Part shown: positions 2,915 through 49,700 of the stretch, piece after piece
Position numbering within the stretch: position 1 is the first letter of the stretch
How the letters are laid out: every line of letters begins with the position of its first letter
IMG/VR virus record: IMGVR_UViG_3300011977_000007
Location: 46,264-110,263 of that record
DNA length: 64,000 nt
Reading direction: 5' to 3' (one strand)
From: a virus
Taxonomy: Duplodnaviria; Caudoviricetes
Notes under the pieces: generated by a model
What the model was told of the DNA's origin: nothing
Database searches by the model: none
The model's input: the letters and a program-made list of their open reading frames with translations, nothing else
Made by a program: the position numbers and the translations under genes

Positions 2915-3460
2915 ATGCAAGTAATAAAAACACCCACTGGATTGATTGCTGTTGATGAATTAGCACAATCTATGACTCAAACAGAGTATAATAATTTACC
3001 TGCAGATAAACAGAAGGTTGGTACTTATTATATTATAAGTGGCGATGGTAAACATATAGCTCTTATTATAAAAGATGGTGTTCCACTAGATTCACTTCCT
3101 GCTAATAATGCTGCATTTACACCACCTAGTGGTATGAGTTCAACTACAGTTCAACAAGCTATAACAGAACTTTATAATAATATGAAAAATACACATAAGT
3201 CTATTACTGCAGTGGCTCCATCTACTAATTGGACTGGCAGCGCTGCTCCTTATACTAATAATATTGCTGTTGCTGGAGTAACAGCTAATAATATAGTTGA
3301 AGTTGGGTTAAGTAATAATGCGAATGACGATCAAGTTAAAGCATGTATGAAAGCAAGTATTGCTAAAATAGAACAACAAAACGGAAGATTAATATTATAT
3401 GCTTATGGTACTAAACCTACGGTGGATATACCATTATCATGCGTTATAGTAAATAATTAA
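2915..3460 (+). CDS. short tail fibre/adaptor protein
   Basis: RBS AAGGA upstream; C-terminal ~70 aa (APYT...VEVGL..NANDDQVKACMKASIAKI...LYAYGTKPTVDIPLS) nearly identical to the C-terminus of the 10276..12444 fibre. Confidence 0.7.
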   Translation: MQVIKTPTGLIAVDELAQSMTQTEYNNLPADKQKVGTYYIISGDGKHIALIIKDGVPLDSLPANNAAFTPPSGMSSTTVQQAITELYNNMKNTHKSITAVAPSTNWTGSAAPYTNNIAVAGVTANNIVEVGLSNNANDDQVKACMKASIAKIEQQNGRLILYAYGTKPTVDIPLSCVIVNN

Positions 3461-3476
3461 TAAGGAGGAAAATATT

Positions 3477-4644
3477 ATGCCAATTATTAATAGACTTCCA
3501 ATCGGGGGGGGGGGCATCCTCTGAAGTAGGCATTAGTGACGGTAAAGGAATTGTAAATTTAAATATTTTTACACAAATGGATGAACCTACAAAGAAAGAT
3601 GGAATTTGGATTAAAACTAATCATAAATATCAGAGAATCATAATTAATAAACCTTATGTAGCATCAAATACTGAAACCGAAATATATTATGTACTAAATC
3701 CCGTACCATTTGACATTAGTTTTGCTCAGAAATATTCATGTCTGCTACATGGAAATATGTATGTTGTAGGTTATATATATAATTCTAATAATGATTCGTG
3801 GACTTTTACTAATGAGCCATATGGTGTGTGGTATCATAATGATATATATTATGCAACTTATTTGTCTAATGATGATTGGTACATATGTAGATATAATAAT
3901 GGCAATCCTGTAAAAATATGCAAATTCTTGGAGAGTAGTGATAGTTTCTATGCAGTTTATAATGATGAAATATATATTAGTAATTTTGAGAATAGCACAT
4001 ATTATTCAATGTTTGTAAAATTTAATGGTAGTGCATATACAGAACTTAATCCTAGCGATAGACCATCTGGTATTAGGCAAATAATATCTTATGGCGGATA
4101 TTTAAATATATTTACTTTAAATGAGCATTATATATATAATGCGGCTAATAATACTATAACGTATAAAACCTATCTCCCACGTACATATACAAATGGCTGT
4201 TGCGCAAAAGTTACGGTTCACAATAACGAGTTACATTATTGTGCATATGATTCACATTATAAATTTAATGATTCTTCCAGTTCGTGGGTACAAGTATCTA
4301 AATGCGATGGCTTACCTAGCGATATAGATTATTTGTATAGTGCAATTTCGTATAATGGAATTATTTATTTATTTACAGGTAAATATGATAAAAAGTTTAT
4401 GTGCTTAAAATCTCCATCAGTAGTATATGATCCTAATACTTTAATTTTGCACAAGAAGAATACATATACTGGTACATATCTAACAGCAATTGCTGATACT
4501 TCAGCGATTATCGATGATGGAAATAATAATAATCGCTTTGTTTCCAGTTTCGATGATTGCTATTATTTTGCAGATTCTGCATTTGATTGGACTGCACCGA
4601 TGTATTATGGTAATGGATCGCAATGGATAAAATTTAAAAATTAA
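3477..4644 (+). CDS. poly-G frameshifted receptor-binding/adhesin protein 1 (beta-propeller-like), out of frame as assembled
   Basis: AAGGAGG RBS, ATG 3477, MPIINRLPI then G11 (3504-3514) and TGA at 3522; G10 joins the leader to the 3577..4644 ORF; repeated Kelch-like YNxxIY blades. Confidence 0.8.
3504..3514 (+). repeat. poly-G tract G11 (contingency locus)
   Basis: CCAATC-G11-CATC in a very AT-rich genome. Confidence 0.9.
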
Positions 4645-14629: not shown

Positions 14630-17600
14630 ATGGGAATTAATGCTCCAAAGCACGTAATACGAAAGCCTAAGCACATTACAAATCCGAAAGACATAGAATA
14701 TATATTGTCCTTAACAGAGGATGAGGCTGCAGCTAAAAATACGATAATGGATTTATTTGCCGATTTTGGAGACGGCCCAAGATTTAATACTTATGATATT
14801 ATAGAAATTCCTAAGGGATCTTATGGTAAAACTAAGAAGAATAAAAATCAATTTACAACTACAGTTGGATTATATGTATTTAATAAAGGCTGCATAGAAG
14901 ATATGTCTGATGTACTGGGATATATTAATGAGCCTATTACTGCTGATAAGTATGATGAAATAAATGAATTAGTATCATATGCTAAATTGGAAGATAAGAT
15001 CACTGTACAGCAGTTGAAAGATTTTATAATACAATCTCAGATTTATATGTCTTGTACTTCAGCATTATCACCATCTCATACAATGGTTCTTCTTTTAATC
15101 TCAGATAAAATTGAGGCTAGAAAGAAACAATTATTAAAAGATAAGTATGGCGAGGCTATAAAGAAGAAAGATATTAAAGCAATGGATGCTCTTGATAAAG
15201 AACTTCTTGATTATGCAAAGGAATTATTAAAAGATGATCCATCTGTTGATATGTTTAATTCTGGTGCTCGTTCATCATGGGGTAAAATTACTCAGCATAT
15301 ATAGTAATATGTGTGTTTCAATGGGGTTAATTGCAGGTAATACCTAAAGGCCTTACGCCAAAACGGAATTTGAAAAAATAAACGGTATGGTACGAAAGTA
15401 GAAAAAACGTAAGGATGCAATAAGCTGAAATAAAATTCTATTATAAATTATAATAGATGCTAAGTTGTAATAACAAGGGTTGTTCATGCAGCGAAATACC
15501 TAAGTCTATATAGATATGGTAAACGTTCAACGACTAGCCGATGACGTCGGCGGCTTTGCCTTAATGTAAAACCACAAGTTAATGGTGGAAGAAAAATCCC
15601 AGCCCTATAAATATAGGGATGACAAATAGTCTCTGCTACTACTTAATCGTAGTGACAACTTGAAATAATATAAGTTGTGTATATAGAGTTGCGTCTATAT
15701 ATAAAGATATAAAAATTATATAATATAAAAATTAAATATAGGTAGATAATTACAATTCTCAAAACACTTCATTAAATCTGTAATGAAAGGTGGTGAGGAT
15801 CGTGAGTAAAATAAATAACAATAAGCAATATTATAAAGGTCATAAATATAAAATATACCCAACTGAGGAACAAAAACAAAAGTTGGATAAATTTATAAAT
15901 CTTTATAGGTACGTTTATAATTGGGCTCTTGCTAAAGAACAAGAGATATATGAATCTTATAAAAATGGTGAAAGTGAAAAATCATTTTATACTTTCTTTG
16001 ATTTGTCAAAAATATTTGTACAATATAGAAATTCGCCTGAAAATAAATGGTTATTAGAATTACCCAACGGTACTGCATGTAATGCGATAAATGAATTGGT
16101 TACTGCATATACAAGGTTTTTTAATAATATTAGTGGGTATCCTAAATTTAAATCTAAGAAAAATTCTAAAAAATCATTTACAACTAGAAATGATAGATTT
16201 TATATAGATAAAAATACTGTAAAAATAGAAGGATTAGATCTAAATGATAGAATTCAATTAGGGTTTGATTCTGAATATAATAAAGATTCTGTTCATCATA
16301 ATACAGTTATATCTAAGGATACTATAGGTGATTATTATGTGTCATTTTGTACTATTGAAGAAAAAATAGAAATTGATAATTCTGATGGTGGGGTAATAGG
16401 TATTGATTTGGGAGTTAGAAATACATTAACAACATCTGTACCTATTGAAGGTGAATATTTTCATCATCAACCATTTAATAAGATTAGTAAATTAAAACGT
16501 AATATATCTAAATTACAAGTTAAAGTATCTCACGATCAATTACGTAGACTTAATGAAGCAAAACGTACGAAAACCAAGTACGAAGACATACCTAAAAGTA
16601 AACGAGAAATTAAGAGAGAAAAAATAATAAATAAGAAATACATTAAGATTCATAATATTAAAAATACATATTATGATACTATTATTAAACGTATTATGGA
16701 TACTAAGCCTAAGGCTGTTGTAATGGAAACTTTTGAATATAATAAAATCATACATTCACAAAAATATATGACTAAATATATGGTTGATACTTCATTTTAT
16801 GATATTACTCAAAAAACAAAGTATCAATGTAATAAAAGAAATATTCCATTTATTCAGGCACCAGTGCAATATGCATCATCCCAAATATGTAGTAATTGTG
16901 GAAATAGGATTAAAATAGGTAATAAAAAGATTTATAGATGCCCTATATGTGGTAATACGTTAGATAGAGATCTTAATGCTGCTTATAATCTCGAAGATTT
17001 TTATTATGACTATACTGGTACTAATAGATTAGTTGCTGTAAGTATAGCGTAATTCGTTTACACATTATTTAGGTTAAATAATGAATTTTAATGTACCGAG
17101 TTTTACTGTTCTCGGGATGTTAAGATCATTGAGAATTGTAAGTATATATCATTTATAAGCCCAACCAGCTTAACGTGTGGTATTCACACGGTTGATATAT
17201 GAATTATGATTTGTTGATATGATAAGTAAATCATAATTATATATTTACCTTTATAGGTTTACATATTATATGATTTTAAATACAGTAACAATTTTAAAAA
17301 CATGTATGTTTCTCGTGGTACTGTTAAATTGACCGATGGATCATTTGATATGGTTACTTCATCATATATATCTGGCCTATCAAAAGAAGATCTTGTTAAA
17401 GCAAATGATGCTGCTGTTGGTGGTCCTTATAGCCGTGCTGTAAAAACTAAAGAGGGTGGATATAATGAAAAGAAAATTCTCTATGGATTACAGCATGTAA
17501 AAGTATTACCTAAAGGATCTGATTGTGGAACTAATAGAACTATAGATGTGACTCTTACTAAAAAGAATATTAAGAATTGGATGTATAGTTTTGTTAAACA

Positions 17601-18264
17601 AGGATCTAATTTAATAGAAATTACATCTGATACTAAAGATAAATTTATTGGAAAAACTGTTAAAATGAGATATTTCTCATTATGTGAATCTAAAAATGGA
17701 ATATGCGAAAAATGTGCCGGAACCTTATTTAATCGTTTGGGAATTTCCAATGTAGGATTAGCAAGTGATATATTTGGTTCTAGACTAAAGAATACTTCGA
17801 TAAACTCTTGTCGCTTCATACTGGTAACAGTGTGTAGAAAATATCTTCTAATTGCTGGAACATGCTAAAGCTCTAATGCCTTAATGGAGAAGAAATTCAG
17901 AAATAAGTTTAGAGATGACTCATGGTGAAATAAAAGCTTATATATCTAATATATAGGTCCTAAAAGTTATTAAAAATGTATAATCAGCAGCGAAGCCTAA
18001 TAATAATTATTAGGAACGTTCAACGACTATCCCGTTTGGTGGTGAAATTCCACAATAGGAGTACGGCCTATATGGTGGGTGAGAATCCCTTAAATGGAAA
18101 TGGAGATATGTCCTCGTATACCTATACGGGGATAGTGATATAGTCTATTATCTAGAGAAATACTAGGTCTATACTAGCGTAAAACGTTAGCTGAGAGGAA
18201 GAGTTTCCATGTGGCTCAAATTAAATTTTCAGATATGGATATAGAAGATGCATTTAATTTATAA
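14630..18264 (+). CDS. phage RNA polymerase beta-prime C-terminal subunit (probably virion RNAP); spliced join(14630..15282,17286..17801,18198..18264), 411 aa
   Basis: Spliced product reads SGARSSWGNNFKNMYVSRG (region F), SRAVKT.EGGY (bridge helix), DCGT, C..C zinc site and NVG...NTSMKSFH (trigger loop); exon sum 1236 nt is a multiple of 3. Confidence 0.85.
15763..15774 (+). promoter_or_regulatory. putative late promoter for intron-encoded tnpB
   Basis: AACA CTTCAT TA, about 28 nt upstream of the tnpB start. Confidence 0.55.
15802..17052 (+). CDS. tnpB: TnpB RNA-guided endonuclease (IS200/IS605/IS607 ORF B)
   Basis: N-terminal KIYPTEEQ...RYVYNWAL; RuvC-I GIDLG, RuvC-II VMET, zinc finger SSQICSNCG...CPICG, RuvC-III DRDLNAA; RBS before GTG 15802 (ORF track starts at 15790). 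Confidence 0.92.
   Translation: MSKINNNKQYYKGHKYKIYPTEEQKQKLDKFINLYRYVYNWALAKEQEIYESYKNGESEKSFYTFFDLSKIFVQYRNSPENKWLLELPNGTACNAINELVTAYTRFFNNISGYPKFKSKKNSKKSFTTRNDRFYIDKNTVKIEGLDLNDRIQLGFDSEYNKDSVHHNTVISKDTIGDYYVSFCTIEEKIEIDNSDGGVIGIDLGVRNTLTTSVPIEGEYFHHQPFNKISKLKRNISKLQVKVSHDQLRRLNEAKRTKTKYEDIPKSKREIKREKIINKKYIKIHNIKNTYYDTIIKRIMDTKPKAVVMETFEYNKIIHSQKYMTKYMVDTSFYDITQKTKYQCNKRNIPFIQAPVQYASSQICSNCGNRIKIGNKKIYRCPICGNTLDRDLNAAYNLEDFYYDYTGTNRLVAVSIA
17053..17285 (+). ncRNA. putative omegaRNA scaffold / intron 3' domain
   Basis: About 230 nt structured non-coding stretch between the tnpB stop and the 3' splice site (hairpins CGTGTG/CACACG and AATTATGATTT/AAATCATAATT); expected position of a TnpB omegaRNA. 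Confidence 0.55.
17802..18197 (+). ncRNA. group I intron (ORF-less) in the trigger-loop Met codon
   Basis: P1 CGAU/GUCG with U.G at the 5' splice site; AATTGCTGG, AATCAGCAG, TTCAACGACTA, GATATAGTC; terminal G; splicing gives AT|G AAG AGT TTC CAT. Confidence 0.88.
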
Positions 18265-18317
18265 ATTAATGTCTAATACTACATTTATGTAATTATAAAT
18301 AAATGGAGGATAATTCT

Positions 18318-18845: not shown

Positions 18846-21800
18846 ATGTATGTAATTAAACGTAATGGAAAGCAAGCAGTTTTTGATAAAACAAAAATTG
18901 TAGTGGCAGTCTCAAAAGCCAATAAAGAAGTATTAGAAAATAAATTATCTGATGATCAGATTAATAATATTGCAGATACTATAGAATCAAGAGCAAAACA
19001 ATTTTCTAGAGCCTTAAATATAGAAGAAATTCAAGACATGGTAGAAAATCTAATCATGTATTATAATAAGTATGAGGTTGCCAAAGCATACGTATTATAT
19101 AGATATAAGCAGAAAGAAAATAGAGATAATGGCAATTTATTTAATAAAGTAAATGCAATTGTAAATAATGAGGATGAGGAAACTAAACAGGAAAACTCAA
19201 ATAAAGATTCGGATATTATATCTGTGCAAAGAGATTATATTGCCGGTGAAGTATCAAAGGCAATGGTTAGACAAGAGAAATATCCTAAATACATTATGGA
19301 TGCTCATGATGCTGGATTAATTCATGTTCATGATTGTGATTATAAAATTTGTAAAGAAACTAATTGCTGCTTGGATAATGTTGATGATATGCTTCAAAAT
19401 AGTACGGTTATTAGTAAAACAAAAATTGATACTCCACATACATTCCCTACAGCGTGCAATATTGCAACCCAAGCAATGGCACAAGTTGCATCTTCGCAAT
19501 ATGGCGGCCAATCTGTATCTCTTTACCATTTAGTAAAATTTGTTGAGGTTAGTCGTCGTGCTATTATTAAAGCTGTTGAAGAAGATCATGTACCAGATGA
19601 GTATAAACAAGAAGCTATAAATAGAAGACTAAGAAAAGAAATTAGTAGTGGCATACAGACTATTCAATATCAGATTATTACGCTTGCAACTACTAATGGT
19701 CAAGCTCCATTTGTTACTTTATTTATGTATCTTAATGAAGCAGAAACAGAGCAAGAAAAAGAAGACCTTGCAATGGTAATTGAAGAGGTATTAAAGCAAA
19801 GAATCAAGGGTGTTAAGAATAAAAAAGGCGTTTGGGTAACTCCTGCTTTTCCTAAACTTATATATGTATTAGAGGATGATAATATAACAAAAGATTCTAA
19901 ATATTTTTATCTTACAGAATTAGCAGCAAAATGTACTGCAAAGAGAATGGTTCCAGATTATATTTCTGAGAAGAAATTAATAGAATTAAAGTATCCTACA
20001 GAAAAACTCTTACATATTAAGGATCGTAGAGATCAGTGGGGTGATGAGCGTATTTGGGGGAGAAACGTATTTAAAAATGTCACTGATGAGGAATGCAATA
20101 AGCTTCAAAATATAGTTGATAATAGATTTAATAAGGAATATATTATTCCGGATGAAACTAAAGCTATTATCAAGAAATATGGATTAAAAATGGCTGATAT
20201 TGTGCCTAAAGCATACCCATGCATAAACAAAACCTGTGCCTAATATTAGTGATAATATTAGCAAACCTGTCTAAAAGGAGAAAGTCTTAATATACTGACC
20301 TGATATTAAGATAACTTACCTTACTAAATTTATATACCTATATTATTAGCGCATATATGAAATAATGAAAGGATAAATAATATGTGGGCTGATCTTATAG
20401 GATAAGAAAATATATAGATATATAATAAAAGTCTAACGACTATCGAAAACGCTGGTATTCGAGAAATACGATATCGGGAAGTGAGTAGAGTAGAGCCATA
20501 TATTATGATAGAACCATTTATATGGTAGGGTGATGGGTAGAGTAAACCCCTTTAAATCGAAAAGATAGGATGTCTTATTTTGGTAAAAGAAATAAGCATG
20601 TGATATAGTCTAGTTCAGCGATATAATACTCATTTAACGTTCTATGTTTAAGTATTATAGCGGCTGGGGGTGTAGGTCCTTCTTAACTCCTGATTACATC
20701 CATTATAAAACTTATGGAAGGTTTAATCAGTCAGTATGTACTATTAATTTAGTTGATGTAGCATTATCATCACAAAAAAATATTGATGAATTTTGGAAGA
20801 TATTTGATGAACGATTAGATTTATGCTATGAAGCATTAATGATTGATCATAATTATCTTATGAAAACACCATCTGATATAGCGCCAATGCAATGGCAAGA
20901 TGGAAATTTAGCTAGATTGGAAAAGGGGGAAACTATTGATAAATTATTAGTAAATAATTACAGTACAATTTCCTTAGGATATGCTGGATTATCTGAATGT
21001 GTTAGATATATGACAGGTAAATCCCATACAAATTCAGAAGCTAAGCCATTTGCATTATCCATAATGAGGCATTTAAATGATAAATGCGATGAATGGAGGG
21101 AAAAAACAAATGTATCATTTAGTCTTTATGGTACGCCTATAGAATCGACAACATATACATTTGCTAAAAATCTTCAAAAGAGATTTGGTATCATTAAAGA
21201 TATAACTGATCGTAATTATATTACTAATAGCTATCATATTCCTGTATTTGAAAAGATTGATGCTTTCAGTAAATTAAAATTTGAATCTGAGTTTCAGGAA
21301 TTATCTCCAGGTGGTTAAATGAACTTTTACATAGCCTTAAATAGCCACCTTGAAATTATGTGAACGCTTGATATGCGGTGTAAATAGTTTTATATTATTT
21401 GCTAACGGGGGACACTTAAGTGGAAATCCCGTGCCAAGCCTATAATATTTTATTATAGGAAGGTGTACAGACTAATTTACCCTGGATTTGATCACCAGTG
21501 GGAAGTGCATAGGGTGAGAAGCAGAGGTTACCTGCTACGCTAAGATATAGTCGGAAGGAGATAAAATTATGTATAAATGTGATATTTGTGGAAGAGAGCT
21601 AAAAAAGAAAAATATGCTACATGGATATAATTTATGCAGTAAACATATGCATCAATTATTAAATCATGGAAAATTTTTAGATAACAATCCAAGAACACAA
21701 AATGACTTAAATGGATATAAAATTATTGGTAAAATTGTAATTTTTGATTTATATGATGGAATATTATCAAATAAAATTAGTGAGTTTATTATTGATTTTG

Positions 21801-22635
21801 ATGATATAGAAATTGTAAAATATCATAAATGGAGACTTTCTCATAATCATGTAGTTACTGGATCTGGAGCATTAGGCACACAACGAGAATTAAGTTGGGT
21901 TATTATGCATCTTGATAATAGAGATGAGAAAAATAAAAATATTGTAATCGACTATGTAGATGGAAATCCGTTAAATAATAGAAAATCAAATCTTAGAATA
22001 TGCACTCAAGCTCAAAATGTAATAAATAAGAAATTTATGAGTACTAATACTAATGGATTTATAGGGGTTAGTTATAAGAAAGATAGAAATTGTTATGATC
22101 CAGAGATAAGATTAGGATATGTAAGATGCCATTTAGGTCAGGTAAAATCTATGGAAGAAGCTGTATATAAAAGAATGATAGCTGAAGAGTTAGTTTTTGG
22201 AGAATTTTGCAATGAAGCAGAACATAATAAAAAATTAGAATTTACTAAAAATATTCCATATGAAAGAAAAAAAGAGCTCGAAGAAATCACAAAACAAAAA
22301 TTGATAGCTAAAGGCCTTTGGCAATAAGCTATGTAGAAGTTCCAAATATGCAAAATAATATAGAAGCTGTAATATCAGTTATTCAATTTATATATGATAA
22401 TATTATATATGCTGAACTTAACACTAAGTCTGATTACTGTGAAGTATGTGGATATGATGGTGAGATTAAAATTGTTGAAGATGATAATGGTAAACTTGTA
22501 TGGGAATGCCCTAAGTGCCATAATAGAGATCAGCATAAAATGTGCATTGCGCGAAGAACATGCGGTTATATAGGTACACATTATTGGAATCAAGGTAGAA
22601 CTCAGGAAATAAAAGATAGAGTTCTTCATTTATAA
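18846..22635 (+). CDS. nrdD: anaerobic (class III) ribonucleoside-triphosphate reductase; spliced join(18846..20224,20667..21315,22321..22635), 780 aa
   Basis: ATP cone (VIKRNG), IHVHD, QYGGQS, restored PCMGCRSFL and SPGGAISYVE, C-terminal CxxC...CxxC and RRTCGY glycyl-radical motif. Confidence 0.93.
20225..20666 (+). ncRNA. group I intron (ORF-less), nrdD intron 1
   Basis: P1 GCAU/GUGC; CTAACGACTA and GATATAGTC (P7); terminal G; splicing restores AT|G GGG TGT (MGC). Confidence 0.88.
21316..22320 (+). mobile_element. group I intron with HNH homing endonuclease ORF, nrdD intron 2
   Basis: P1 GGUGGU/GCCACC; AATCCCGTGCCAAG, CAGACTA, AAGATATAGTC; terminal G 22320; splicing restores SPGG|AISY. 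Confidence 0.88.
21569..22327 (+). CDS. intron-encoded HNH-AP2 homing endonuclease (catalytic His appears replaced by Tyr)
   Basis: N-terminal CxxC...CxxH; IDYVDGNPLNNRKSNLR HNH motif; C-terminal GFIGVS...HLG...EEA...FGEF AP2-like domain. Confidence 0.8.
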   Translation: MYKCDICGRELKKKNMLHGYNLCSKHMHQLLNHGKFLDNNPRTQNDLNGYKIIGKIVIFDLYDGILSNKISEFIIDFDDIEIVKYHKWRLSHNHVVTGSGALGTQRELSWVIMHLDNRDEKNKNIVIDYVDGNPLNNRKSNLRICTQAQNVINKKFMSTNTNGFIGVSYKKDRNCYDPEIRLGYVRCHLGQVKSMEEAVYKRMIAEELVFGEFCNEAEHNKKLEFTKNIPYERKKELEEITKQKLIAKGLWQ

Positions 22636-46783: not shown

Positions 46784-49700
46784 TTATCTCATTGCTTGTA
46801 ATCTTTTAATTTTAGCAATTTCATCTTCTGTATATTCACATAATGATTTCATAGAATTAGCATTAATAATTGTATCTCTAGAATGCATCATATCCATATT
46901 ACAACGTCCATCATTTTTTGAAATAAACATTTGTCTTGGAGATATGATATTCTCTGCTGCTTCTATAAATGCTCTTGAATATAACAGAAGGATATTTAAT
47001 GTGTCCAGTATCTTCACACTAGTCGTTAATTAGTGCAGTTCTCTTACGAACTTCTATGGTTTTTCTCCATATGTTGAGACTATATCATCATCTCTATGAG
47101 ATGCTTCTCCACTTCGATTTAAAGGGTTCTCACCTACCTACTTAGGCCCTACTCCTGTTGACGAATTTCACGTCCCTTCCGGGGATAGTCGTTGAACTAT
47201 ATTAAAAATATAGCTGCTGATTATACATTGTTAATACTACTTAGCACTCTATACAGTATAGAGTTTTTTCTCAGCTTATAGCATCTTAGAACTTGTTTCT
47301 GTCTTTCGACTCCTAATTATAGGCATCTAAGCTTTAGCATTTCCCAGCAATTCAAAGAAGATACTTAATATATTACTATATTAAGCGGCAATACATAATT
47401 TACCATCGACCGTAAAACGTAAGCTAAGAGCATACGTTTTAAATAGACTATATCTTCATCCATTATATGGATGCTTTGCTTTTTGATTTAAATGGCCTTA
47501 TTGCTGCTTTGCCATACCTATATAATGGGCTCTACTCTAATAACTTGATAGTCGTTGAACTTTCTATAATAATAACTATTATAGTTTAGCTGCTGATTGT
47601 ACATTATTAATGAACTTTAGCATTTACATAATTCGACACAGCATTACATAAACTTTTTCTCAGCATAGTTCATCTTTAGAATTTTTTCTATCTTTCGATA
47701 ACATTCACGCTTATTATTACTAATTACGTTGTAGTTTCTAAAGCATTAATACCTCCCAGCAATTTACAAAGATTTAACCTATATATTACTATATAAGTGA
47801 CCCCGATGATTTGTTGAGTCTGCAGCAAGTAATTTTAATATTAACAGTGAAATACTCATGGTGTAATCCATATTAATTCCTACAACACGACAAAATAATA
47901 TTCCTCCGTAGCTAATTGTAGGGTTTCTGTTACAATATCTTCACACTAGTCGTTAATTAGCGCAGTTCTCTTATGAACTTCCTAGGTATTTCTCCTAGAG
48001 TTGAGACTATATCATTACCCATATATATATATGGGTATGCTTCCACTTCGATTTAAGAGATTCTCACTCACCTACTTAGGTCCTACTCCAATTGACGATT
48101 TTCACGTCCCGTATAGGGGATAGTCGTTGAACGTTCCTAATAAAATATATTAGGCTTCGCTGCTGATTATACATTGCATAATACCTTAGGACGTATCTAT
48201 TTTATAAATACGCTTTTATTTCACCATAGTACATCTCTTCTACTTGTTTCTATCTTTCGATACCTTATATATTATATAGGCTAGAGAGCTTTAGCATTTC
48301 CCAGCAATTCAAAAGCATTCGTACACCATATTACTATGATATACGGACTAACGTTAATCAGTACAGGTAATCCGCCATCTGAATCTTTAATTAAACCATC
48401 TATAATATCATAGACAATCTGATCAAATCCAATCTGTGCTTTATACCATTTCTTATATGCATCTGCATATGAAAAATTATAAGTCCTTACAAGTATATTA
48501 ATTATTACCTGTTGTAATAATTCACATAAGCCATGATATGGTAATTTTACCTGATCTGGCATTAAATGTACATCTTGTCTAATAACCGAACGGCTACTAA
48601 ACGAGTCGGCGGGTTCACATAGGTCGTTAATCTATGCAGTTTTCTTATGAACTTCTCTAGGTGTTACCTAGAAGCCCAGACTATATCACATACCTTATCT
48701 TATAAGGCATCTTTCTTTTTCGATTTAAGGGGTTCTCACCCACCACTTGGCCCTACTCCTGTTGGCATTTTATTAAGGGCTGCCCAATGGGATAGTCGTT
48801 GAACGTTCCTAATAAAATATATTAGGCTTCGCTGCTGATTATACATTGCATAATACCTTAGGACGTATATCAATATATACGCTTTTATTTCACCATAGTA
48901 CATCTCACTAATTATTTCTATCTTTCGATGCCCTATATAGAAGAGGGATAGTGAGCTTTAGCATTTCCCAGCAATTTAAAAAGATTCACGCACTATATTG
49001 CTATAATACGTGGGCTGATGATAGTTAACCTACCCATTTTGTTCACATAGGTCGTTAATCTATGCAGTTCTCTTATGAACTTCTCTAGTTTTTCTCTAGA
49101 TGATCAGATTATATCATTATACTTTATTCAAGTATTCTTCCACTTTGATTTAAGGGATTCTCACCCACCACTTGGCCCTACTCCTATTGCTGAATTTCAC
49201 AGCCCTTCCGGGGATAGTCGTTGAACGTTCCTAATAAGATATTAGGCTTCGCTGCTGATTATACATTATACGTTATTTAGGACGTATATAATATATACGC
49301 TTTTATTTCACCATGTAACATCTCTCTACTTGTTTCTGAATTTCTTCACCTTATTATAGGCTAGAGAGCTTTAGCATTTCCCAGCAATTCAAAAGATTAT
49401 TCGACACTGTGTTACCACAATGAAGCGGCTTAGATACAAACCGATCGAAGATCTTAAATCTCCTTTTTTACCTTCAAGAATTTCTTTAAGCTCAGTATAT
49501 AAAGCATTAAATTCAACCTGAATATCGTATAATACTTCATATTTATTTTTCTTTTGTCTATCTGGTACTAATTTATCATTATTAGCCTGATATACTAAAT
49601 GAGCTAAAAGATTATAATTCTCATTAGTTTTTTCATATTTAAGACTACCAGCATTATCCAATTTGGTAGGTCTTAATAATGTAGTAAATACAGGAATGGA

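Follow-up and report, generated by a model that had tools for sequence, protein, structure and literature searches.

The stretch of viral DNA analyzed here (64,000 nucleotides (nt), hereafter the window) belongs to a 110-kb IMG/VR virus record (IMGVR_UViG_3300011977_000007, or G000) with an estimated completeness of 35%, and it carries an insert of 2003 nt within the gene for the C-terminal part of the beta-prime subunit of a jumbo-phage RNA polymerase (RNAP). This insert is very probably an IStron-type element, namely a group I ribozyme of the IA2 type fused to a module composed of the nuclease TnpB and its omega-RNA, without a transposase. The best overall explanation, which we hold with moderate confidence, is that of a transposase-less IStron residing in an AR9/PBS1-like jumbo phage, which would be spliced out of the polymerase transcript and whose TnpB would cut alleles of the gene that lack the intron. 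In particular, by analogy with a characterized clostridial element, it is reasonably probable that TnpB acts as an RNA-guided nuclease in homing or in interference between phages. The element is a phage branch of a known IStron class, and the homing proposed in the first-pass annotation of this DNA does not amount to a new principle. In fact, IStrons were described in 2014, among them copies on two Clostridium botulinum phages, c-st and D-1873, and a copy, CsISt1, that has only ORF B (PMC4227781), and a review of 2026 already put forward the possibility that TnpA-less IStrons home into co-infecting phages (PMC13565253). No description of IStrons in jumbo-phage polymerase genes was found in the literature.

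The interest of this element stems from the fact that IStron biology rests so far on one clostridial element expressed in Escherichia coli. Near-identical phages with and without a transposase-less element in an essential gene would constitute a natural test of RNA-guided intron homing. If the nuclease is active, it would play, with an RNA guide, the part that protein homing endonucleases have in deciding the competition between co-infecting jumbo phages. Moreover, conserved long-range helices and an internal promoter-like motif suggest a way to settle the conflict between splicing and guide-RNA production.

Host gene and boundaries of the insert

All position numbers given below are window coordinates and refer to the + strand unless marked otherwise. 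The insert and the two exons that surround it are the following.

14630..15282, + strand: exon 1 of the gene for the C-terminal part of the virion-RNAP beta-prime (homologue of AR9 g264; phrog_2962 70-237); its last 4-5 nt are the candidate target-adjacent motif (TAM) and the 5' strand of P1
15283..17285, + strand: IStron-type insert, 2003 nt; boundaries from intron-less alleles, including that of the relative L009 (93-95% nucleotide identity)
17286..17797, + strand: exon 2 of the same gene (phrog_2962 242-407; rpoC_TIGR 701-796)

The open reading frames (ORFs) that flank the insert, 14630-15304 and 17302-17868, match neighboring stretches of the same profile, phrog_2962 (70-237 and 242-407, respectively), and exon 2 also matches the bacterial rpoC profile rpoC_TIGR / TIGR02386 at positions 701-796. 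The nearest named homologue of the interrupted gene is AR9 g264, annotated as the C-terminal subunit of the virion RNAP beta-prime. A scan of IMG/VR with exon 2 yielded 29 related loci, the majority of them located on contigs of 80-265 kb. In all 29 relatives exon 1 and exon 2 are continuous, with a single Gly codon over the joint, and the insert is therefore placed at 15283-17285, within the protein sequence SGARSSWG/NNFKN (here and below, a slash marks the joint). In other words, these uninterrupted relatives bear out the proposal of a 2003-nt intron in a conserved part of the jumbo-phage beta-prime gene, and correct only its end, since the coordinate given at first, 17305, overshoots by 20 nt into exon 2. 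Removal of the insert restores the host ORF, and the ends of the element coincide with the splice sites, the joint being GG/T in the 29 uninterrupted homologues. The 5' exon ends in TGGGG, the first base of the insert is T and its last bases are ACAG.

An alternative splice joint was considered after U15288, which would provide the usual U before the 5' splice site and would add Lys-Ile to the protein. It was rejected, as none of the 29 homologues has the extra residues, and it is also disfavored by the fact that IStrons of group B splice after G (PMC4227781). A short direct repeat spans both junctions, GTAA in the window (15279-15286 and 17282-17289) and AGA in the related element L038 (2527-2529 and 4444-4446), and therefore the boundary at the DNA level is ambiguous by a few bases. 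Such a repeat could be due to chance in AT-rich DNA or could be a recombination core.

Ribozyme, TnpB and relatives of the element

The L038 element, which serves as the main comparison for the element of the window, lies in a complete 313-kb IMG/VR phage genome (G002) and splits the gene for the RNAP beta subunit exactly at the universal GDK motif, with junctions GGAG/A and GCAG/ATAAAC. The two elements are alike in their TnpB (43-45% identity), their ribozyme (72%), the CAG end, the G-ending 5' exon, the long-range helices and the fact that no tnpA was found; they are unlike in the RNAP subunit gene that they interrupt, in the target sequence and in the phage lineage. The location of this sister element in another RNAP gene implies that its guide was re-set by the new flank. 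The ribozyme and the coding part of the window element comprise the following features.

15283..15665 (end approximate), + strand: IA2-type group I ribozyme (RF00028, 29.7 bits; kinship with IStron ribozymes)
15291-15293, + strand: proposed internal guide sequence CUC, predicted to pair with GGG at 15280-15282 (P1)
~15297-15318, + strand: P2 hairpin
near 15525-15535 and 15625-15632, + strand: strands of P7
15802..17052, + strand: tnpB, 416 amino acids (aa), with a GTG start behind a strong Shine-Dalgarno sequence (Pfam, PHROG and NCBIfam matches)

The assignment of the 5' part to the group I introns, made at first reading, stands despite an RF00028 score below the gathering threshold, being sustained by homology to IStron ribozymes and by covariation. 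Specifically, over 357 nt the ribozyme shows 72% identity with the 5' portion of the L038 element, and over 310 nt it shows 66% identity with the stretch directly upstream of OrfA/OrfB in Clostridium phage c-st, which is the published IStron CbISt3 (PMC4227781). When five such ribozymes were folded together with RNAalifold, 54 pairs were predicted, and 29 of these show compensatory changes. In addition, the proposed P1 pairs GGG with CUC in the window and GAG with CUC in L038, the middle pair passing from G-U to A-U. Searches with a ribozyme profile (nhmmer) revealed that a ribozyme of the IStron type is found upstream of many other phage-borne TnpB loci too. Exact-pattern scans of IMG/VR for a block of the tail and for a block of the ribozyme returned the L038 contig as sole match.

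In a tree of 27 ribozymes the window sequence groups with L038 (support 96/96), inside a clade that comprises CbISt3 of c-st (100/99), and the phage's own introns devoid of an ORF form a separate clade (99/100). Because the ribozyme groups with those of IStrons, it arrived together with TnpB and is not a resident intron that gained a nuclease. The proposed resemblance of P2 and core to the ORF-less introns of the same phage survives in part: the P2 loop contains an 11-mer of which the window has three exact copies, each at the P2 position of an intron, two of these introns being resident ones. Taken as a whole, however, the ribozyme is nearer to those of IStrons, and a derivation from the resident introns is contradicted by the tree.

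The second component, TnpB, matches the Pfam families HTH_OrfB_IS605 and Cas12f1-like_TNB, TnpB structures of the PDB and, with 203.9 bits at a cut-off of 100, the NCBIfam model NF040570 (guided_TnpB). Its start is the GTG at 15802, in place of the earlier 15790, and the resulting length of 416 aa equals that of a 98% identical relative (P0001). Counted from this start, D202, E309 and D388 make up the RuvC triad, and C363, C366, C380 and C383 form the zinc finger. The RuvC Asp/Glu/Asp triad and the four Cys of the zinc finger (CxxC..CxxC) are invariant among relatives of 45-98% identity and align with the motifs of the PDB TnpBs, so that the prediction of a complete TnpB, with all three acidic residues and the zinc finger, is well founded. 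The cluster defined around this protein at 90% identity counts 28 members from many samples, on contigs of up to 262 kb, and most of the 15 members listed are full length (416 aa). TnpBs with 98% identity lie on contigs of 262 kb and 170 kb, those with 71% and 69% identity on contigs of ~250 kb and, in general, the contigs with the closest TnpBs measure 155-313 kb. On the other hand, the best TnpB among 185,579 bacterial and archaeal species genomes is only ~30% identical, with none above ~31%, and a metagenome scan found no TnpB nearer than 43% identity. The case that had been named as fatal to the homing proposal, that is, near-identical copies with tnpA at host sites, was accordingly not encountered in those species genomes.

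As regards the transposase, the insert contains no ORF longer than 71 aa besides tnpB, leaving no room for tnpA, and searches for Resolvase and Y1_Tnp domains came up empty both in the 110-kb record and in the complete genome that carries L038. The absence of tnpA noticed at the outset is thus confirmed for the element and for the record.

Predicted guide, long-range pairings and the proposed homing cycle

Downstream of tnpB, and between the flanks of tnpB, the element contains a series of structured regions, some of which keep their position in L038.

17053..17285, + strand: structured 3' tail, 233 nt, putative omega-RNA scaffold (may start inside the 3' end of tnpB)
17286..17301, + strand: predicted guide/target, first 16 nt of exon 2 (from its position relative to the right end and analogy with CboIStron, PMC10690162)
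15712-15726 / 17263-17277, + strand: helix A (inverted repeat I6; in L038, 2950-2957 / 4431-4438)
15743..15774, + strand: block conserved ahead of tnpB (inverted repeats I3 and I4; L038 equivalents I12 and I13), which could pair with the tail or with the tnpB ribosome-binding site
15743-15762 / 17129-17148, + strand: pairing B, joining the block upstream of tnpB to the tail (in L038, 2966-2978 / 4315-4327)
15747-15774 / 15781-15808, + strand: pairing C, a local hairpin over the tnpB ribosome-binding site (in L038, 2975-2987 / 3008-3020)

The tail corresponds to the structured region of about 230 nt, ending at the 3' splice site, that had been described in the first-pass annotation. Folding of 17030-17301 gives a minimum free energy (MFE) of -67.6 kcal/mol (z = -4.9), and none of 200 shuffled sequences is as stable. 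A hairpin at ~17095-17117 and the GAGAATTGTA block, both within the tail, are conserved with L038. The RAGATH-18 motif is absent from 16950-17320 at E <= 10, while controls score 50-67 bits. In the MFE fold, moreover, the 3' end of the tnpB ORF (17032-17040) pairs with 17281-17289, that is, 9 nt spanning the 3' splice site ACAG/UAAC. Such a pairing, of which no clear counterpart is seen in L038, would mask the splice site or the junction between scaffold and guide.

Three pairings, detected as inverted repeats, keep their position between the window and L038. Helix A would enclose the loop that bears tnpB, and its 3' strand stops 8 nt short of the 3' splice site in the window. In L038 the helix is a perfect, GC-rich stem of 8 bp located 7 nt before the splice site, at the aligned position and with an entirely different sequence; read from these two sequences, the change is an en-bloc compensation. 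By closing the tnpB loop, helix A would bring the 3' splice site to the ribozyme core.

The block upstream of tnpB also contains, at 15763-15774 and thus in the 5' arm of pairing C, the motif AACA-N6-TA, placed 39 nt before the start codon and kept in L038. This motif is the consensus of the late promoters of AR9 (PMC5312081). In the window it occurs 7 times in 56 upstream windows, with 1.9 expected, usually 30-39 nt before a start codon, and one occurrence precedes a CHAP lysin gene. As to the late promoter of phage type proposed for the element, the match and its enrichment upstream of genes speak in its favor, but it stands as a motif match. Promoters of the sigma-70 type are not enriched (24 found, 30 expected). 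A second, AT-rich motif upstream of tnpB, at 15714-15727 and inside the 5' strand of helix A, matches a motif of the early-promoter type at 13 of 14 positions; as a late promoter it was rejected, since it fits the AR9 early consensus with one mismatch (PMC5312081). The corresponding sequence, AATTATATATTATA, is present in eight exact copies on the - strand (13012, 36553, 42304, 46420, 50466, 52869, 59725 and 60345), all of them intergenic and upstream of minus-strand genes. With at most one mismatch there are 11 matches, against 3.0 expected, and the sequence is one position off the AR9 early (virion RNAP) consensus (PMC5312081). These copies are probably the early promoters of this phage.

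On these grounds the following cycle can be proposed. Transcripts starting at the promoter of the host gene would contain the ribozyme together with the long-range helix by which the core receives the 3' splice site, and splicing after G15282 and after G17285 would restore the polymerase mRNA. Where transcription starts instead at the candidate late-type promoter inside the element, near 15763-15774, or where a transcript is left unspliced, the scaffold would stay joined to exon 2; an RNA starting at 15763-15774 could not splice, because it would lack the ribozyme as well as the upstream strand of helix A. Such RNAs would give rise to TnpB and to an omega-RNA whose guide is made of the first ~16 nt of exon 2. 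TnpB would then cut only intron-less alleles, where the G-rich TAM (TGGG/GGGG, alternative forms) directly adjoins the exon-2 sequence. Following the cut, recombination with an intron-bearing genome would copy the element into the broken allele, resulting in homing, or the cut would simply disable a co-infecting competitor. A broader reading, which we advance tentatively, is that jumbo phages own a TnpB lineage that has dispensed with transposition and works as a programmable nuclease of homing or interference for polymerase introns, with a scaffold other than RAGATH-18 and an RNA switch. As part of this tentative reading, the internal late promoter, the anti-Shine-Dalgarno hairpin and the alternative long-range helices would sort the RNA between spliced mRNA, on one side, and TnpB mRNA plus guide, on the other.

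The search for intron-less close relatives, suggested together with the homing proposal, was successful. The closest phage genome, L009 (G001; 265,692 bp, 98% complete), is 93-97% identical at the nucleotide level across the region and lacks the insert, the second intron of the same gene and, genome-wide, any tnpB. Compared with exon 2 of the window, L009 shows 17 mismatches in the first 140 nt (12%) and 13 in the next 380 nt (3.4%), nearly all at third codon positions, and in a sliding comparison no stretch from ~1.7 kb before the joint to 0.5 kb after it diverges as much as the one that adjoins the joint. This peak of divergence at the joint fits co-conversion, or acquisition by recombination from a diverged donor. 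The predicted 16-nt guide occurs once in the window.

A number of observations weigh against this picture. The RF00028 match of the ribozyme (29.7 bits, E 1e-5, in a search of the phage's own genome and in a 551-nt scan) is below the gathering score of 50; at the gathering threshold the insert has no Rfam match, and an E-value scan of 7 kb likewise missed the ribozyme. The tnpA search in the phage covered a record that is 35% complete, and a tnpA elsewhere in the phage or in the host is possible. The omega-RNA scaffold matches no Rfam family and the tail is only partly conserved with L038. The TAM at the G-rich end of exon 1 (TGGG/GGGG) is a candidate by analogy with CboIStron. The 16-nt guide finds no exact match among the 29 empty alleles: L009 differs from it at positions 1, 7 and 10 and the other alleles have at least 3 mismatches. 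The differences of L009 could reflect co-conversion, drift or escape. The divergence peak derives from a single comparator genome, and 5% of the 140-nt windows over 3.6 kb are at least as divergent. Furthermore, the AACA block may be conserved as the arm of an anti-Shine-Dalgarno hairpin, rather than as a promoter. Finally, splicing, TnpB-bound RNA and cleavage are predictions for the window element.

Three other explanations have to be weighed. Ordinary IStron transposition, in which an IS607-type TnpA of the host, acting in trans, moved the element to a GG site, splicing alone lets it persist and TnpB has no role in its spread from phage to phage, appears unlikely. It would account for an insertion site that contains GG, as is typical of IStrons of group B (PMC4227781), and for the junction repeat of 3-4 nt (GTAA, or AGA in L038), as expected of a recombinase core; moreover, it is common for IStrons to lack ORF A, and such copies are taken to be mobilized in trans (PMC10690162, PMC4227781). 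However, the right end is ACAG and not the CGG/GG needed for the TnpA core, and the left and right dinucleotides are GG and AG, respectively. The distribution of TnpB also speaks against a bacterial source, given the ceiling of ~31% in the 185,579 species genomes and the 155-313 kb contigs that carry the closest copies, and both known members sit in the most conserved RNAP motifs, a pattern expected of homing.

A relic that still splices and is tolerated, with a nuclease-inactive TnpB/omega-RNA that is decaying or is kept as an RNA chaperone of splicing or as a regulator, is to be judged improbable to a similar degree. The lack of a matching empty target and of the RAGATH-18 scaffold of related elements would be in line with it, as would a contig of 253,819 nt on which a related TnpB is present in truncated form (copies of 77 and 342 aa). 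A relic is nevertheless hard to combine with catalytic and zinc-binding residues that are invariant across relatives of 45-98% identity, with the many full-length 416-aa proteins listed for the 28-member cluster, coming from many samples, and with a strongly structured tail and helices conserved with L038. Least credible of all is a chimera formed de novo in this lineage by secondary insertion of TnpB into a resident ORF-less intron, to which the earlier remark on the resemblance of P2 and core would lead: although the phage is unusually rich in IA2-like introns and the P2 11-mer is found, all three times, at an intron P2, the resident introns fall in their own clade and the window ribozyme among those of IStrons. 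In addition, one and the same element, L038, provides the closest IMG/VR match to TnpB and to the ribozyme, which indicates that the unit was inherited whole. A transposase-less IStron that homes by means of its TnpB is, for these reasons, the explanation that we prefer.

Other introns of the phage and comparison with known systems

The same beta-prime gene contains a further intron.

17798..18200 (ends approximate), + strand: second group I intron, without ORF (RF00028, 48.1 bits; nhmmer match)

It is followed by a short exon 3 that ends near 18270, and it is this second intron that L009 also lacks. The gene nrdD (18846-22632) consists of three exons (Pfam NRDD 1-250, 262-470 and 471-562); its intron 1, at ~20244-20643, has no ORF, and its intron 2, at 21316-22320, contains an ORF for an HNH_3 endonuclease (21569-22327) and is absent from L009. 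Introns with TnpB, with HNH and without ORF thus coexist in one phage, as the nrdD and beta-prime genes illustrate. Five intron-like ribozyme matches (nhmmer, IStron ribozyme profile) are clustered within 2.4 kb on the - strand, at 47076-49392, three of them above the Rfam gathering score. Between 3577 and 10134, several plus-strand genes have a run of 11-14 G immediately before, or within, their 5' end. Another IMG/VR phage of 349 kb (L047/G005) harbors a canonical group B IStron, with a GAGG target and RAGATH-18 after tnpB, a second tnpB with two in-frame TGA codons beside a Y1 transposase fragment, and two ORFs of ~580-600 aa with a serine-recombinase domain. From this content it follows that jumbo phages can hold several types of TnpB elements.

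The described group B (IS607-type) IStrons, namely BcISt1, CbISt1-4 and CsISt1 (Tourasse et al. 2014, PMC4227781), are the closest known counterparts of the window element. Their hallmark is a 5' exon that ends in G at a GG-containing site (PMC4227781), and splicing after G was demonstrated by reverse-transcription PCR for BcISt1 (PMC4227781, PMC13565253). The window element shares with them the 5' IA2 ribozyme, followed by tnpB and a structured 3' end, and the coincidence of boundaries and splice sites, with the G of the 5' exon pairing with a C of the intron. The 5' exons of the group end in AGGG, TGGG or GAGG, and not in U, to be compared with TGGGG/T in the window and GGAG/A in L038. CbISt3 on phage c-st, CbISt4 on phage D-1873 and CsISt1 with ORF B only are precedents for phage-borne or tnpA-less copies (PMC4227781). 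As judged from sequence, the element departs from the group in its 3' end, in RAGATH-18 and in the TnpB sequence. Specifically, group B IStrons end in CGG (TCGG in the c-st CbISt3 control), whereas the window element ends in ACAG and L038 in GCAG. In c-st and in five other phage loci RAGATH-18 comes right after tnpB, a position from which it is missing in the window element; these six loci are the source of the criterion, which is operational. The window TnpB is only 26% identical to OrfB of c-st, and no serine-recombinase TnpA, or remnant of it, as found in group B, is present. Also different are the host gene, an essential polymerase gene of a lytic-type jumbo phage, and the promoter-like motif upstream of tnpB.

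As for the mechanism, the model is the IS607-type CboIStron of C. botulinum (Zedaveinyte et al., bioRxiv 10.1101/2023.11.20.567912), whose 5' exon ends in the TAM, TGGG, whose guide is taken from just 3' of the right end and whose TnpB cleaves the empty joint (PMC10690162). In that element splicing competes with omega-RNA production, the two outcomes being mutually exclusive (PMC10690162, PMC13521648). The same wiring, with a TAM at the end of exon 1, a guide at the start of exon 2 and cutting of the empty joint, would by analogy apply to the window element. CboIStron differs in having a TnpA, a location on a bacterial chromosome, a scaffold that ends in UCGG and an activity observed in E. coli, whereas the window element is known from its sequence.

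Finally, as regards its setting, the element resembles the gp210 system of PhiPA3, a homing-endonuclease intron in a jumbo-phage RNAP gene, of a kind whose endonucleases mediate competition between phages (Birkholz et al. 2024, PMC11620839). In AR9, similarly, g190 and its own early promoter sit inside the intron of the late gene g189 (PMC5312081). Like the gp210 system, the window element is a nuclease-bearing group I intron that interrupts a jumbo-phage RNAP gene in a conserved region, with co-infecting relatives as the expected target. The nucleases of PhiPA3 gp210 and AR9 are, however, protein-only HNH enzymes with a fixed target, whereas TnpB of the window element would be guided by RNA derived from the flanking exon.

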